Under the pieces are notes generated by a model. That model saw nothing but the letters and a program-made list of their open reading frames with translations. It had not been told where the DNA came from and searched no databases. From an uncultured Microthrixaceae bacterium (GTDB taxonomy: Bacteria; Actinomycetota; Acidimicrobiia; Acidimicrobiales; DATDAH01), in assembly GCA_963845425.1 (NCBI GenBank), contig CAWJSC010000010.1:451968-515967 (forward strand): a stretch of 64,000 nt of DNA, read 5' to 3'. Made by a program: the position numbers and the translations under genes. Shown in pieces: positions 2,821 to 37,180 of the stretch. Each line of letters opens with the position of its first letter. Positions within the stretch are counted from its first letter, which is position 1.

Positions 2821-4155
2821 TCAGCGGCCGTCGCCGCCGATGACGCTGCGCAGGGTCCGGCCCACAATCCGCAGGTCGAGGCCCACGCTCTGACGCCGGA
2901 GGTAGAAGAACTCGTACTGGAGCTTCTCCAGGGCGTCCCGCTCGTCGCCGGCGTAGCCGTACTTCACCTGGGCCCAACCGGTGAGGCCGGGGCGCACCAG
3001 GTGCCGCATGCCGTAGAACGGGAGCTTCTCGCTGAGCTCCGCCACGTAGTGGGGCTGCTCGGGCCGGGGCCCGACCACCGACAGCTCGCCCCGGAGGATG
3101 TTGACCACCTGGGGCAGCTCGTCGAGGTGGCTGCGGCGCAGGACGTGACCGACGGGGGTGATGCGGGGATCGTCCTCGCCCGTCCATTCGTCGGGTAGGC
3201 CCTCGGGAGCCGGGCGCATGGTGCGGAACTTGAGGATCGAGAAGGTCTCGCCGTTCTTGCCCACCCGGGTCTGGCGGTACAGCAGCGGGCCCTGGTTGCC
3301 GACCTGGTTGGTCACCAGCACCACCGGGGTCACCAGGGCCAGCACGAGGGTCCCGGCGGCGCCCAGGGCCACGTCGACGACCCGCTTCACCCGGGTGTAC
3401 CGCTGCCGGTGGACCTCGCCGATGTCGAACATCATCGCCACCCGCTCCAGCTCGCCCACGGGCAGCTTGCCCAGCCACTCCTCGTAGAAGAGCGACAGGG
3501 TCCGGACCCGGATCCCGGCGGCGTGCAGGGCGGCGGCCTGGGCGACGACCGAGGGCTGGTCCTGAGCCGCCCGGTCGAGCACGAGGACGGTGGCGCCCTC
3601 GGCCTGGACCAGCTCGGCCAGCGGCCGGACCCCGGAGCCGCTCACCTCGGCCGCGGTCGGTTCCAACGTGGCCACCACCGCGGCGGCCGTCTCGGCGCCC
3701 CGGTCCAGCTCCACGCTCAGCTCGTGGCCGACGGCGGCGGCGTGCTCGGCCACGACCACCACCCGGTCGCGGCGCTCGTCGGAGGAGCGCCCGTCGAGGG
3801 CCAGGTTGACCGTGAGCAGGTACCAGGGGACCAGGAGCAGGGCGCTGCCGAAGACGACGAAGCGGGGCAGCAGGGCGTCGCCCACCAGGAGCTGGACGAC
3901 CGACATGCCCAGCGCCCCCGCGAGCGCGGCGGCCGCCGCGGAGATCACCGCAGTGCGGCGGTTCCGGGGGACGTCGGGCAGGCCGAGGCTGTAGGCGGCG
4001 ACCGCCAGGATGCCGATGTAGGCCAGGGACCAGGCGAAGCGCGAGGAGCCGCTGTAGTCGTAGGTGCCGAGTTGACTGGCGTGCAGCTTGCTCAGGCCGA
4101 TGACGGCGAGGGCGATCCCGCCGAACAGGGCTCCGGGCGCGAGTCGCGACAACAC
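2821..4155 (-). CDS. Polyprenyl-phosphate glycosyl-1-phosphate transferase (WbaP/bacterial sugar transferase family)
   Basis: C-terminal domain: [23 protein letters not shown]...[37 protein letters not shown]...[11 protein letters not shown]-terminal TM helices are present. The start is set at GTG 4155 because the longer ORF (to 4404) would overlap the uvrA 3' end. Confidence 0.88.
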
Positions 4156-33334: not shown

Positions 33335-33919
33335 TCAGCTCGCTTCCGGTGCCAGTTCCCCGTCGATGATGTCCTGGGCCACACGCTTCATCGTGTGGCG
33401 GCGGTGCATGGCGGTCTTCTGGATGAAGGCGAAGGCGTCGGACTCGCTCATCTTCTCGCGGTCCATGAGCTGGCCCTTGGCCCGGTCGACGACCTTGCGG
33501 GTCTCCAGCTGCTCCTCGAGGGACTCGGCCTGCTCGTGCAGGGCCCGCATCTCCCGGAACCGGCCGAGGGCCACCTCGAGCGCGGGCACCAGCTCGCTGC
33601 GCTGGAACGGCTTGACCAGGTAGGCCAGCGCGCCGGCGTCCCGGGCCTTCTCGATCAGGTCCCGCTGGCTGAAGGCGGTGAGGATGAGGACCGCGGCCCG
33701 ACGCTCACCGGCGATCTCCCGGGCGGCGGAGAGGCCGTCCAGGCCCGGCATCTTGATGTCGAGGATGGCGATGTCGGGCTCGAGCTGCTTGACCAGGTCG
33801 ACGGCCTCGTCACCCCGGCCGGTCTCGCCCACGACCTCGTACCCCTCCTCCTCGAGGGTCTCCTTCAGGTCCAGGCGGATGATGGCCTCGTCCTCGGCGA
33901 TGACGACTCGCGTGGACAC
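33335..33919 (-). CDS. pdtaR: ANTAR-domain response regulator (PdtaR-like)
   Basis: GTG 33919. Receiver: VVIAEDEAIIRLDLKETLEEEGY...DIAILDIKMPGLDG...AYLVKPF. ANTAR: RKVVDRAKGQLMDREKMSESDAFAFIQKTAMHRRHTMKRVAQDII. The stop lies 3 nt before the polA ATG. Confidence 0.9.
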   Translation of the reverse strand: MSTRVVIAEDEAIIRLDLKETLEEEGYEVVGETGRGDEAVDLVKQLEPDIAILDIKMPGLDGLSAAREIAGERRAAVLILTAFSQRDLIEKARDAGALAYLVKPFQRSELVPALEVALGRFREMRALHEQAESLEEQLETRKVVDRAKGQLMDREKMSESDAFAFIQKTAMHRRHTMKRVAQDIIDGELAPEAS

Positions 33920-34025
33920 GGTGGCAGGGCTCCTCGGGTGGCTCGATCTCGCGAACCGGCGACTGTACTGGCCGATGCCCGCCGGGCCGCTACGTGCTTT
34001 TCGGGACTGGTGGCGGGGCCGATCC

Positions 34026-34313
34026 TCAGGCCGGGCCGAGCTGGTCGAGGAGCCGGTCCTGGTCCCGTTCCAGCCGCTCGATCTCGACCTCGACCTCGGC
34101 CCGGTGGCGGGACAGGGCGGCGGCGTGGCGCTCCGCGTCATGGTGCTCGCGCTGGGCCAGTGCCGTCTCGGAGACCATCGCCCGGATGCGGGCGTCCTCC
34201 GCCTCCTCGCCCAACTGGTCCATCTGCTCGGCGGTGACGCCCAGCTCCTCGCGGAGGCGCTGGAGGCGGCGGGAGTTGTCCCTGAGCCGTCGCTCGACGG
34301 TCGACCGGCGCAC
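34026..34313 (-). CDS. Small coiled-coil protein (95 aa), function unknown
   Basis: GC3 is uniformly high. The sequence is heptad-like and charged: RLQRLREELGVTAEQMDQLGEEAEDARIRAM...EVEVEIERLERDQDRLLDQL. Confidence 0.6.
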   Translation of the reverse strand: MRRSTVERRLRDNSRRLQRLREELGVTAEQMDQLGEEAEDARIRAMVSETALAQREHHDAERHAAALSRHRAEVEVEIERLERDQDRLLDQLGPA

Positions 34314-34371: not shown

Positions 34372-34848
34372 GTGCGTCGGCTGCTCGTGGTCCTGTTCCT
34401 GGCGGCCGGCCTGGCCGCCTGTGGGGGCGACGACGAGGTCGCCTGCGGGCCGGTGACCCGGGAGGCCCTCGACCCCAACTCGGGCCTGCACGTGCTGCCC
34501 GACCAGGAGGTCCCGGAGTACACGACCCAGCCGCCGACCTCGGGGGCCCACTACTCGCTGCCACCCCCGACCGGTGCCGTGTCCGACCCGATCGACCCTC
34601 CCCTCCAGGTGACGGCGCTGGAGGGCGGCATGGTGCTCGTCCAGTACCAGGACCTGTCCGACGCCGACGTGGCCGAGTTGGAGGACCTCGGCTCCGACGT
34701 CGTGATCGTGGCCCCGAACCCCGACCAGGCCGAACCGGTCGTGTTGACCGCCTGGATCACCAAGCAGACCTGCTCGGGCGTCGACCTCGACACCATCGAG
34801 ACCTTCATCAAGGACCAACAAGGCCGCGGCCCCGGCACCGACTTCTGA
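34372..34848 (+). CDS. DUF3105-like lipoprotein
   Basis: GTG 34372. Lipobox: VRRLLVVLFLAAGLAAC. PPTSGAHY motif. The upstream part of ORF 33994..34848 is antisense to the coiled-coil gene. Confidence 0.75.
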   Translation: MRRLLVVLFLAAGLAACGGDDEVACGPVTREALDPNSGLHVLPDQEVPEYTTQPPTSGAHYSLPPPTGAVSDPIDPPLQVTALEGGMVLVQYQDLSDADVAELEDLGSDVVIVAPNPDQAEPVVLTAWITKQTCSGVDLDTIETFIKDQQGRGPGTDF

Positions 34849-34922
34849 CATGGCCGAGGTGTCACACCCCCTCATCAGAATGGGGCATGACCCACAGTGC
34901 AGTCGGTAGCCTCGCCCTCAGA

Positions 34923-35007
34923 GCGGCGATGGTGGAATGTATACACGCGGCCCTCAAAAGGCCGTGGCCCTCGGGCCATGCGGGTTCGAATCCCGCTCGC
35001 CGCACCA
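34923..35007 (+). tRNA. tRNA-Leu (anticodon CAA), class II with a long variable arm; CCA encoded
   Basis: Hand-folded. Acceptor: gcggcga/tcgccgc. Anticodon stem cggcc/ggccg with loop cuCAAaa. Variable arm ggcc-cucg-ggcc. T arm gcggg-ttcgaat-cccgc. Discriminator A followed by CCA. Confidence 0.9.
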
Positions 35008-35014
35008 CTGACTG

Positions 35015-35818
35015 ATGCGACCGACTGCCGACATTCGTCGGGCACAGGTCCTCGTTGAGGCCGGGTGGCCACTCCTGCGTGTGGCCGAGGAGCTTGGCCT
35101 AGCCAGGGCGACAATTCGGAACTGGCGGGACGCGGGCTTCAACCGCTTGATTGCGTCGCGACATGAGACGCACCCGAATGCTGATCTACGCGGTCACCCA
35201 AGTCGGTTGGACGTCGGTGCGCCAGGCACACATCCGTGCGTCGCTCCATCGCTCGCCGAGGCGGTACCGGCGGCGTACGCGTACCTCCTCGGGCAGTACC
35301 TCGGCGATGGAACCGTCAGTCTCATGCCGAAGGCCGTCTACAAGGTCCGGATCTTCTGCTGCTCGCACTACCCCGGGATCATCGGGCGTTGTGTCGCCAC
35401 CGCCCGCGCTGTGCTCCCGCGCAAGGTCGGTACCTACAAGGTGCCCGACGTGAACATGGTGACGGTCACGTCCCACTGGAAGCACATGCGCTGCCTCTTC
35501 CCCCAGGACGGGCCAGGGCGCAAGCACGACCGCTTGATCATCCTGGACGACTGGCAGAACGAGATCGTGCTCGCCCACCCGCAGCGGTTCCTACGGGGCT
35601 TGATCGAGTCGGACGGTTGTCGGGTCATCAACCGGGTCAACGGCGGGGAGTACCCGCGGTACATGTTCAGCAACGCCTCCACCGACATCATGGCGCTCTG
35701 CGTCCGGACCATCGAGCAGCTCGGCCTCCACTGGACGACGGCGAACAGCCGCAACATCGCCATTTCTCGGCGAGCCGACGTCGAGTGCCTCGACTCCTTC
35801 ATCGGGCCGAAGTGGTAG
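35015..35818 (+). CDS. Free-standing LAGLIDADG-type (two-motif) homing-endonuclease-like protein with an N-terminal HTH
   Basis: 267 aa. HTH: LLRVAEELGLARATIRNWRDAG. Motif 1: AYLLGQYLGDGTV. Motif 2: FLRGLIESDGCRV. Codon usage is visibly less GC3-biased than in neighbouring genes (ATT, CGT, GTT, CTA, ACA, AAT). The ATG lies 7 nt after the tRNA CCA. Confidence 0.7.
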   Translation: MRPTADIRRAQVLVEAGWPLLRVAEELGLARATIRNWRDAGFNRLIASRHETHPNADLRGHPSRLDVGAPGTHPCVAPSLAEAVPAAYAYLLGQYLGDGTVSLMPKAVYKVRIFCCSHYPGIIGRCVATARAVLPRKVGTYKVPDVNMVTVTSHWKHMRCLFPQDGPGRKHDRLIILDDWQNEIVLAHPQRFLRGLIESDGCRVINRVNGGEYPRYMFSNASTDIMALCVRTIEQLGLHWTTANSRNIAISRRADVECLDSFIGPKW

Positions 35819-35831
35819 GTACGGTGAGGTC

Positions 35832-35939
35832 GTGGGTTGGCTGATCGGGGTCCTCGGGGTGGCGGCGGTGGTCGCGGCGGTGCGTGAGGCGCGGATCCGG
35901 TCGTTGGAGAAGCAGCACGATCCGGACCGGACACCCTGA
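35832..35939 (+). CDS. Possible 35-aa hydrophobic micropeptide
   Basis: Hand translation: VGWLIGVLGVAAVVAAVREARIRSLEKQHDPDRTP. It is below the ORF-track length cutoff, and only composition supports it. Confidence 0.2.
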   Translation: MGWLIGVLGVAAVVAAVREARIRSLEKQHDPDRTP

Positions 35940-36004
35940 GCCGGGATGAAACCAACACCGCCTCTCGCCGGTCTGACCGGCATGGCAGCGCCCGGTAGGC
36001 CGGC

Positions 36005-37180
36005 ATGATCGCGTTCACCTTCCCGGGACAGGGCTCCCAGAAGCCGGGCATGGGCGAGCCCTGGAAGGACCATCCCTCCTGGGAGCTGGTCGAGGAGGCC
36101 TCCACCGTCGCCGGTCGGGACGTGGCCGAGCTGCTGCTCACCGCGGACGCCGACGAGCTGCGGGAGACCCGCAACGCCCAGCTCGCCACCTACGTCGCCA
36201 GCCTCGTCGTCCTCGACGCCGTCGAGCGCCTCGGCGTCGATCCTGCACGCGTCGCCGGGCACAGCCTGGGCGAGTACACGGCCCTGACCGCCGCCGGGGT
36301 GATGTCCTTCGCCGACGGCATCCGTCTCGTCACCGAGCGGGGCGAAGCCATGCAGGTCGCCGCCCGCGAGCGGGCGGGGACGATGGCCGCGGTGATCGCC
36401 CTCGACGACGACGACGTGGCCGTGGCCTGCGCCACGACCGACGGTGACGTCTGGCTGGCCAACCACAACGCGCCCGGGCAGGTCGTCATCGCCGGCGCCC
36501 CCGAGGCCATCGAGGCCGCGGGCGAGCACGCCAAGGAGCTGGGCGCCCGCCGGATCCTGCCCCTCGAGGTCGGCGGGGCCTTCCACACCCCGTTCATGGC
36601 CTCGGCCCGCGACCGGCTCCGCAAGGCGCTGGCCAAGGCCGACCTCCGCGACGCGGAGCTTCCCGTCCTCGCCAACGTGGACGCCCGCGCCCACACCACC
36701 GCCGCCGAGTGGGAGAACCTCCTCGCCGCCCAGCTCTGCTCTCCCGTGCGCTGGCGCCAGATCCTGCACACCCTCGGCGAGCAGGGCGTCTCCCTCCTCG
36801 TCGAGCTGGGCCCCGGCACGGTGCTGAGTGGCATGGCCAAGCGGACCCTCGAGGGCGTCACCACCCTCTCTGTGGGCGTGCCCGACGACCTCGACAAGCT
36901 GCTCAACACGCTCTCGGAGCCGCGCTCGGCCGACTGGGCCCACGAGCCCGGCGAGCACCTGTTCGTGACCGAGCGCCTCGTGGTCAGCCCCGGGGCCGGC
37001 CTCTTCCGTCCCGAGCCGGGCGTCGGCGCGGGCTCCGTCGTCGAGCCCGGCACCGTGGTCGGCCACGTGGGCGCGCTCGAGGTCCGCTCCGCCTTCGCGG
37101 GCGAGCTGGTCGACGTCCTCGCCGTGGACGGCGAGCGCCTCGCTCCCAGCGAGCCCGTCGCCTGGCTCCGGAGCGCCTGA
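36005..37180 (+). CDS. fabD: Malonyl-CoA:ACP transacylase with an extra C-terminal biotinyl/lipoyl-like domain
   Basis: FTFPGQGSQKPGMG...GHSLGEYTALTAAG...GAFHTPFM. About 80 extra residues follow: LVVSPGAGLFRPEPGVGAGSVVEPGTVVGHVGALEVRSAFAGELVDVLAVDGERLAPSEPVAWL. Confidence 0.92.
   Translation: MIAFTFPGQGSQKPGMGEPWKDHPSWELVEEASTVAGRDVAELLLTADADELRETRNAQLATYVASLVVLDAVERLGVDPARVAGHSLGEYTALTAAGVMSFADGIRLVTERGEAMQVAARERAGTMAAVIALDDDDVAVACATTDGDVWLANHNAPGQVVIAGAPEAIEAAGEHAKELGARRILPLEVGGAFHTPFMASARDRLRKALAKADLRDAELPVLANVDARAHTTAAEWENLLAAQLCSPVRWRQILHTLGEQGVSLLVELGPGTVLSGMAKRTLEGVTTLSVGVPDDLDKLLNTLSEPRSADWAHEPGEHLFVTERLVVSPGAGLFRPEPGVGAGSVVEPGTVVGHVGALEVRSAFAGELVDVLAVDGERLAPSEPVAWLRSA

Follow-up and report, generated by a model that had tools for sequence, protein, structure and literature searches.

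A free-standing HTH-LAGLIDADG gene beside tRNA-Leu(CAA) in an uncultured Microthrixaceae genome: intact, from a large unnamed family, and probably encoding a homing endonuclease

The DNA analyzed here is a stretch of 64,000 nucleotides (hereafter, the window) from an uncultured Microthrixaceae bacterium (assembly GCA_963845425.1, contig CAWJSC010000010.1, positions 451,968 to 515,967), and the subject of this report is an open reading frame (ORF) that directly follows its tRNA-Leu(CAA) gene and encodes a helix-turn-helix (HTH)-LAGLIDADG protein of 267 aa. According to our analysis, this ORF is intact and belongs to a large unnamed LAGLIDADG family that lies beside tRNA-Leu genes in actinobacteria and phages. 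We favor the view that it is a free-standing homing endonuclease specialized on the tRNA-Leu locus, with cleavage, target, and mobility as the predicted parts of this assignment. The window copy is intact and under purifying selection, and it occurs in a Microthrixaceae-like Acidimicrobiales genome, a background in which the family is rare. The searched literature contained no account of this nuclease family and, as far as that literature shows, the family-level picture is new.

An earlier reading of the same DNA, made from the letters alone (the sequence-only reading), had described the ORF as a free-standing gene with two LAGLIDADG motifs, each keeping its acidic catalytic residue, behind an N-terminal HTH. 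All of these points are borne out. The ORF stands alone between the tRNA and fabD (start at 36005), outside any intron or intein, and takes up 804 of the 997 nt that separate the two. Its start codon is backed by homologs that open with the same MRP...DIRRAQ. The HTH LLRVAEELGLARATIRNWR occupies residues 20 to 38, and the profile search called for in that reading recovered both expected Pfam families just under their gathering scores, namely, HTH_23 (residues 9 to 39, E = 1.9e-4) and LAGLIDADG_3 (E = 4.8e-4, 20.8 bits against a cut-off of 22.5). Among 61 family members searched at E<=1e-3, HTH_23 was detected in 42 and LAGLIDADG_3 in 29, the best value for the latter being 6.3e-7, and neither NCBIfam nor PHROGs holds a dedicated model for the family.

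Since a sequence-only search of the PDB returned marginal matches only (I-AniI at E = 0.0035 with a profile), structure prediction was required to settle the fold. The AlphaFold2 model, built from a 61-sequence alignment, reached a predicted local distance difference test (pLDDT) score of 90 and a predicted template modeling (pTM) score of 0.73. It consists of a four-helix N-terminal domain (helices 4-15, 20-27, 31-40, and 42-50), a disordered linker, and two alpha-beta-beta-alpha-beta-beta-alpha units, which is the saddle fold that the earlier reading had suggested looking for. The best 50 PDB matches listed by Foldseek were all LAGLIDADG proteins, headed by I-Tsp061I (E = 4.5e-8) and including I-AniI, the bI3 maturase, PI-SceI, I-DmoI, I-SceI, I-OnuI-type enzymes, and the N-terminal domain of WhiA (3hyj, E = 1e-5). 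The two putative catalytic residues, D98 in YLLGQYLGDG and D200 in FLRGLIESDG, are invariant across the 61 homologs and close helices 85-98 and 189-200 of the model. Between the two domains, the alignment reveals a motif, PQxGPGxKHxR, in which P163, Q164, G166, G168, K170, H171, and R173 are invariant and which is also found in the phage relatives described below. The ratio of nonsynonymous to synonymous divergence (dN/dS) against the three closest relatives is 0.18 to 0.25, and the gene thus encodes a protein under selection. As far as the model and alignment indicate, the product is a true LAGLIDADG protein of the two-motif kind that carries an HTH and retains its predicted catalytic residues.

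I-AniI, I-DmoI, I-SceI, I-Tsp061I, and the endonuclease domain of PI-SceI have the same pseudo-dimeric fold, and in them, too, each LAGLIDADG helix terminates in an acidic residue. Those enzymes, however, are encoded in group I introns, archaeal introns, or inteins, whereas the members of the present family are free-standing and add the N-terminal HTH and the PQxGPGxKHxR motif to the monomeric design; shared identity amounts to 8 to 20%. In several homologs a CxxC (CPxC) motif, which might be left over from a zinc knuckle, is found in the variable linker that joins the HTH to the LAGLIDADG core (about residues 51 to 80 in the window protein, which has no such motif).

A word-indexed search retrieved 443 homologs, almost all of them labeled "hypothetical," and an exhaustive profile search at E<=1e-30, with clustering at 50% identity, gave 1,159 clusters, of which nearly all consist of stand-alone proteins of 240 to 270 aa. 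When genomes were scanned with one representative per species, at least 570 family loci were obtained, and tRNA adjacency was counted in the best 80 of these. The gene lies within 312 nt of a tRNA-Leu(CAA) gene in 77 of the 80 and of a tRNA-Leu(CAG) gene in 2 of the 80. Most loci, the window among them, have the tRNA upstream on the same strand, but it is also found upstream on the opposite strand (L028 and L032), downstream on the same strand (L020, L024, L025, L043, and L077), and downstream on the opposite strand (L013, L027, L045, and L065). The family and its tRNA occur together in Streptomyces, Kribbella, Micromonospora, Acidimicrobiia, Thermoleophilia, and Dormibacterota, and the flanking genes change with the lineage: pdtaR and pyk in Streptomyces, the DUF3105 gene and fabD in the group of the window, and others elsewhere. 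Because the gene is tied to tRNA-Leu on both sides and in all four orientations, the tRNA gene itself appears to be the relevant partner. In two Solirubrobacterales loci (L026, 5902..5985; L079, 5907..5989), where the gene is 12 to 16 nt from tRNA-Leu(CAG), a tRNA-Glu(CTC) gene lies nearby on the other strand.

The partnership extends to phages. Searches with tblastn gave no family match in PLSDB (plasmids) or INPHARED (deposited phage genomes); viral contigs of IMG/VR yielded distant relatives (22 to 38% identity) from genomes with a GC content of 31 to 44% that carry tRNA arrays and tmRNA genes. These relatives share the N-terminal HTH and the motifs YxYLLGxYLGDG, FPQHGPGKKHxR, GLIHSDGC, and FIGPK. 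A tRNA gene abuts all 13 of the phage-contig relatives examined, and in 9 of the 13 it is a tRNA-Leu (Table 1); the start codons that align with that of the window gene fall 4 nt (L248) and 16 nt (L250) past the tRNA 3' end. Given that the association spans high-GC chromosomes and low-GC phages, it is not the legacy of one ancestral insertion. One phage locus is peculiar: in L251 (3704..4504), a 74-nt tRNA(CAA) gene (3893..3966) separates the part coding for the HTH from the LAGLIDADG core within one uninterrupted frame, so that the translated tRNA reads ...WRFDSS...; either the gene is split by the tRNA or the open frame is a coincidence.

The sequence-only reading put the position of the gene down to tRNA 3' ends being common entry points of foreign DNA, and it is here that this reading has to be amended: a selfish-type cassette is retained, the explanation of its place is not. 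A generic foreign islet, brought in by site-specific recombination at the tRNA 3' end with the LAGLIDADG gene as incidental cargo, would agree with a location directly 3' of the tRNA and with a low GC content at third codon positions (GC3). We nevertheless deem it very improbable. An integrase is missing, 34700-36200 contains no direct repeat of the tRNA 3' end, the inserted DNA is essentially one ORF, and the family lies 5' or 3' of tRNA-Leu specifically, in either orientation and in many lineages. An integrase-dependent island with att-type ends is effectively excluded on the same grounds (no integrase, no att-like repeat, a single-ORF insert). As for composition, the relaxed codon usage noted earlier is real, the gene having a GC content of 0.652 and a GC3 of 0.84 against a GC3 of 0.935 to 0.959 in polA, pdtaR, the DUF3105 gene, fabD, fabH, and the fabG-like gene. 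The same offset is seen in the relatives of the window (0.78 to 0.85 against about 0.95) and in Streptomyces, where the nuclease gene averages 0.851 against 0.946 and 0.932 for its two flanks and falls below both in 47 of 50 loci. Low GC3 is therefore a family-wide trait and no sign of recent acquisition.

Presence and absence were followed in loci sampled through the neighboring pdtaR gene rather than through the nuclease, 80 from Streptomyces (L081-L160, one genome per species) and 80 from Acidimicrobiia (L161-L240). In the latter set the nuclease gene is absent from 78 of the 80; the two carriers are L176, with an intact copy, and L214, with a 63-aa remnant beside the tRNA. A 613-aa frame in L176 was considered as a fusion protein and dismissed as a high-GC artifact. 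About 35 Acidimicrobiia loci are ordered fabH-fabD-tRNA...pdtaR-polA with a tRNA-fabD gap of about 80 to 240 nt, to be compared with the much wider interval in the window. Among species representatives, only two Microthrixaceae metagenome-assembled genomes carry the nuclease subclade to which the window gene belongs. The sequence-only reading had staked its case on a LAGLIDADG fold and on a gene that not all relatives have; the fold was found, and the gene is absent from most relatives. Across L161-L240, tRNA-Leu(CAA) at the fabD/pdtaR/polA locus faces fabD in some relatives and pdtaR in others.

Streptomyces offers a graded picture at a fixed slot, pdtaR(-)/tRNA(+)/gene(+)/pyk(-). The 80 species comprise 53 with full-length copies (one with an internal stop), 7 with fragments, and 20 without a match, and the distance from the tRNA to pyk is 880 to 940 nt at intact sites, 460 to 710 nt at sites with fragments, and 67 to 170 nt at empty ones. 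In the alignments, some "empty" sites keep the first or last codons of the ORF (...GPKY*), while others are clean; the leftover ends indicate that the former arose by internal deletion. This series is the one expected from a cycle of invasion, decay, and loss of a homing endonuclease.

The tRNA at this slot is itself highly variable. We counted 59 distinct tRNA(CAA) sequences in the 80 Streptomyces species, belonging to at least eight lineages and to two architectures, type I (74 to 77 nt, with a 5-nt variable loop) and type II (83 to 86 nt). Median pairwise identity is 0.69 for the tRNA against 0.88 for the adjacent pdtaR DNA, and the two are uncorrelated (r = 0.016). Even among pairs with pdtaR at least 95% identical, the tRNA type differs in 7 of 14, and the nearest neighbor by flank (mean identity, 93%) has the same tRNA type in 53% of cases against 49.5% under permutation (P = 0.32). 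Where the flanks are 90 to 98% identical, identity nonetheless falls to about 58% from roughly -40 to +48 of the tRNA and recovers over the T-arm, and an identity patch that ends within the tRNA points to a mosaic with breakpoints inside the tRNA gene.

What the tRNA follows is the nuclease. Nuclease identity correlates with tRNA identity (Mantel r = 0.56, equaled in 0 of 2,000 permutations) and far less with pdtaR identity (r = 0.11), and the two main nuclease clades divide between type I and type II tRNAs as 20/0 and 4/29 (Fisher P = 5e-11). Whether the gene is intact shows no structure by host relatedness (P = 0.19) but is predicted by the tRNA allele lineage (P = 0.007); the S. coelicolor-like 74-nt lineage, for instance, has no nuclease gene match in 8 of 10 loci. 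A phage origin of the type I tRNA was also considered and rejected, the best phage-to-Streptomyces tRNA identity of only 71% being too weak.

Under the homing interpretation, one transcript would span the tRNA and the gene, and processing of the tRNA 3' end would leave a near-leaderless message for translation. The spacer between the two leaves no room for a promoter or a Shine-Dalgarno sequence, which suggests this co-transcription; a spacing of 7 to 10 nt recurs in the relatives L241, L242, and L244, and a promoter and terminator search of 34700-36100 gave no match. The HTH would anchor the protein, and the pseudo-dimeric core with D98 and D200 would break both strands, presumably in or next to a gene-free tRNA-Leu(CAA) allele. 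Repair from a gene-bearing template, incoming or resident, would then copy the endonuclease gene along with the adjacent tRNA allele. This would amount to intronless homing with co-conversion, like that of the T4 seg genes, and would spread the cassette independently of host background. Such independence is the observed pattern, of which homing would be the putative cause. After fixation the gene would decay and then be deleted, and both decay and deletion are seen in Streptomyces. An active-looking nuclease, its association with tRNA-Leu, the decay series, and a cassette that ignores host background fit together in a homing endonuclease.

Several observations pull the other way. In Streptomyces, where nuclease DNA is at most 85% identical and the flanks are 85 to 96% identical, no pair has a nuclease identity above the flank identity, and there is thus no sign of very recent horizontal movement; recent horizontal transfer, as a candidate in that one-genome-per-species sample, was rejected. 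In the subclade of the window, nuclease divergence is ranked like that of host genes (84/70/65% identity against 96/90/84% for fabD), an order that fits vertical descent with fast evolution. Synonymous divergence of the nuclease in this subclade is 1.7 to 2.8 times that of the flanks, which could stem from weak codon bias or from deeper coalescence. Tight physical linkage (about 100 nt) in an old, recombining polymorphism could by itself account for the pairing of nuclease clades with tRNA alleles, and the hypervariability of the tRNA is gauged against pdtaR DNA only. Acidimicrobiia display both the tRNA type dimorphism and the orientation flips although the gene is rare there, so that another force may drive the turnover of the tRNA. 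No tRNA was detected near the nuclease gene in L062, a short contig, or in L176, and the 3' trailers of empty sites showed no conserved sequence pointing to a target. It is on account of these observations that we regard homing as the probable reading and no more.

Some of the same observations could be read in favor of a domesticated, WhiA-like factor that binds the tRNA-Leu(CAA) gene or its promoter and tunes UUG decoding, or that acts as a maturase-like chaperone of the pre-tRNA, in either case without mobility. WhiA is a developmental regulator of actinobacteria and other Gram-positive bacteria that is, as far as known, universally conserved, carries its HTH at the C terminus, and has lost the catalytic residues. 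The combination of an HTH with a LAGLIDADG scaffold in Actinobacteria is that of WhiA/DUF199, whose N-terminal domain is among the fold matches; the gene is under purifying selection, tightly adjoins the tRNA with which it may be co-transcribed, and bears no signature of recent transfer, and the co-variation of protein and tRNA sequences could mean co-evolving recognition. We consider this explanation unlikely. In WhiA and the maturases the catalytic aspartates are lost, but here both predicted ones are invariant, and the gene is dispensable, being decayed or deleted in 27 of the 80 Streptomyces loci and lacking in nearly all of the Acidimicrobiia ones. It lies on either side of the tRNA and in either orientation, and its relatives in phage tRNA arrays are hard to square with a host tRNA regulator. 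Membership in WhiA/DUF199 proper is ruled out by the retained aspartates, the N-terminal position of the HTH, and a distribution that is patchy and decaying.

The closest documented analogue of the family is SegB of phages T4 and T6. T4 SegB is a free-standing endonuclease encoded in a tRNA cluster that cuts inside tRNA genes and drives their preferential inheritance; rearrangement of the tRNA region by SegB is documented as well, and SegB co-localizes with tRNAs across 296 phage genomes (PMC13096335, PMC2988022). Like SegB, the present family is free-standing, lies outside introns and inteins next to tRNA genes, and occurs in phage tRNA arrays. It differs in that its fold is LAGLIDADG and that of SegB GIY-YIG, the two being unrelated in structure and catalytic chemistry; with no GIY-YIG domain, membership in the SegB family was rejected, and the nuclease would be SegB-like at most in its working. 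SegB is further associated with many tRNA isotypes, the nuclease family mostly with tRNA-Leu. Most of the members found are chromosomal, moreover, and stand beside a single-copy tRNA gene, deletion of which was not achieved in S. coelicolor (Zeng et al., PMC6614811).

SegB also suggests a more benign role, in which breaks at the tRNA locus promote amplification or allele exchange, allow escape from tRNA-targeting toxins or defense systems, and keep the gene in place for this benefit. SegB amplifies tRNA loci segmentally to evade Septu, OLD, and ToxIN (PMC13096335), family members are present in phage tRNA arrays, and the allele diversity of tRNA-Leu(CAA) is extreme, loss of the variable arm included. 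In the roughly 250 loci examined, though, there is no tandem tRNA amplification, a PADLOC search of the nuclease returned no match to known defense or anti-defense families, and frequent decay speaks against a sustained benefit. Such a remodeler overlaps with homing in mechanism and differs only in the beneficiary; we rate it slightly below even the domesticated factor.

To our knowledge, work on free-standing homing endonucleases has centered on phages and organelles, and the LAGLIDADG enzymes known from bacteria are for the most part those of inteins and introns. Here, a family of more than 1,100 clusters, for which Pfam, NCBIfam, and PHROGs have no dedicated model, is found in bacterial chromosomes beside one tRNA gene. 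If active, its members would be selfish nucleases able to drive allele turnover of a core component of translation across a phylum, and a source of new, small natural meganucleases of about 250 aa that carry an additional HTH and presumably differ in specificity. They would also provide a testable explanation for a puzzle raised by Zeng et al. (NAR 2019, PMC6614811). According to that report, the S. coelicolor tRNA-Leu(CAA) is a functional type I tRNA that ScoLeuRS charges and whose gene resisted deletion, some Streptomyces are without the type I form of tRNA-Leu(CAA), and no explanation for this had been proposed; a term search of the same text for "endonuclease" and "horizontal" found no link to a neighboring endonuclease gene or to horizontal allele replacement. 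The type I/type II dimorphism treated there concerns the very tRNA gene that is the partner of the nuclease, and what the present analysis adds is that both tRNA forms share one syntenic slot, each tied to its own nuclease clade. Cutting at the tRNA locus may explain the variability of tRNA-Leu between related species. We can offer only as a tentative conjecture, with the odds leaning against it, that the family is in long conflict with an essential tRNA, in which cutting and repair from foreign templates would repeatedly replace the tRNA-Leu(CAA) allele and produce the lineages, the orientation flips, and the coexistence of type I and type II, with phage arrays as a second reservoir.

Table 1. 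Features of the nuclease locus in the window and tRNA genes abutting the phage homologs. Coordinates refer to the window; phage loci are given by their identifiers.
Feature	Location	Strand	Basis or remark
PdtaR-like ANTAR response regulator	33335..33991	-	
tRNA-Leu(CAA), type II (long variable arm), encoded CCA	34923..35007	+	ARAGORN; Rfam RF00005, 56.5 bits
7-nt spacer, tRNA 3' end to ATG	35008..35014	+	Sequence
Free-standing HTH-LAGLIDADG gene, putative endonuclease, 267 aa plus stop	35015..35818	+	ORF, Pfam, fold
N-terminal four-helix HTH domain, residues 4-50	35024..35164	+	HTH_23 and model
LAGLIDADG domain 1, residues 85-161	35267..35497	+	Alignment, model, Foldseek
Motif YLLGQYLGDGTV, residues 90-101	35282..35317	+	Sequence
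Predicted catalytic D98 codon	35306..35308	+	
Family-specific interdomain motif FPQDGPGRKHDR, residues 162-173	35498..35533	+	Alignment
LAGLIDADG domain 2, residues 179-260	35549..35794	+	Pfam, alignment, model, Foldseek
Motif FLRGLIESDGC, residues 192-202	35588..35620	+	Sequence
Predicted catalytic D200 codon	35612..35614	+	
35-aa micro-ORF in fabD upstream region	35832..35939	+	Probably no gene
tRNA-Leu(UAA) abutting phage homolog	L248, L249, L250, L252		
tRNA-Leu(CAA) abutting phage homolog	L251, L256-L259		
tRNA-Met abutting phage homolog	L253-L255		
tRNA-Ala abutting phage homolog	L247		

The genes around the nuclease are ordered polA(-), the PdtaR-like ANTAR response regulator(-), a DUF3105 protein(+), the tRNA, the ORF, and fabD-fabH-fabG, and the best matches of the window PdtaR are from Acidimicrobiales (Aquihabitans, 83%). 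An Rfam scan of the tRNA-to-fabD region found no RNA element besides the tRNA. A stem that would bracket the tRNA (34899-34913 with 35014-35028) is not kept in relatives and was taken as chance. The 35-aa micro-ORF behind the nuclease gene, which the earlier reading had listed, does exist as a frame, but its status as a gene is unsupported: the nearest relative, L241, is alone in conserving it (88.6%), L242 has a partial version, and in L244 it is undetected.

In the tRNA-Leu(CAA) genes of these three relatives (L241, 2992..3078; L242, 3907..3991; L244, 3775..3861), the anticodon stem contains a predicted U30-U40 mismatch, and many positions of the D-arm and anticodon stem differ from those of the window tRNA, even though the FabD proteins are 84 to 96% identical. 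Within Acidimicrobiia, a short type I tRNA-Leu(CAA) is present in 11 loci (Ilumatobacter group), and the endonuclease gene is almost always absent from L161-L240.

In Streptomyces, a hairpin, CCTTGG-nnn-CCAAGG, lies directly after the tRNA, about 3 to 25 nt past the tRNA-Leu(CAA) 3' end (e.g., in L121 and L143), and appears with a somewhat variable stem in the aligned occupied and empty sites. In the aligned occupied or relic sites L131, L139, L143, and L150 it is followed by a second, terminator-like hairpin with a T-run, which lies ahead of the endonuclease ATG at sites with an intact gene. The interval from the tRNA to pyk is 2.2 to 3.0 kb in L098, L108, L119, L130, and L141, and in the Acidimicrobiia locus L162 that from fabD to the tRNA is 1.39 kb; the extra DNA is present besides the endonuclease gene in L098, L108, L119, and L130 and in its place in L141 and L162, so the intergenic slot may gather other insertions too.

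Two further features of the window neighborhood recur in its relatives. Typical malonyl-CoA:ACP transacylases are roughly 80 to 90 aa shorter than the window FabD (36005..37180), which has 391 aa and Acyl_transf_1 as the only domain recorded; its C-terminal extension (...VVSPGAGLF...GTVVGHVGALEV...) is of equal length in L241, L242, and L244. Between pdtaR and the DUF3105 gene, an ORF on the minus strand (34026..34313) encodes a charged, coiled-coil-like protein of 95 aa with no Pfam match recorded, and counterparts of 90 to 95 aa occupy the same place in L241, L242, and L244.

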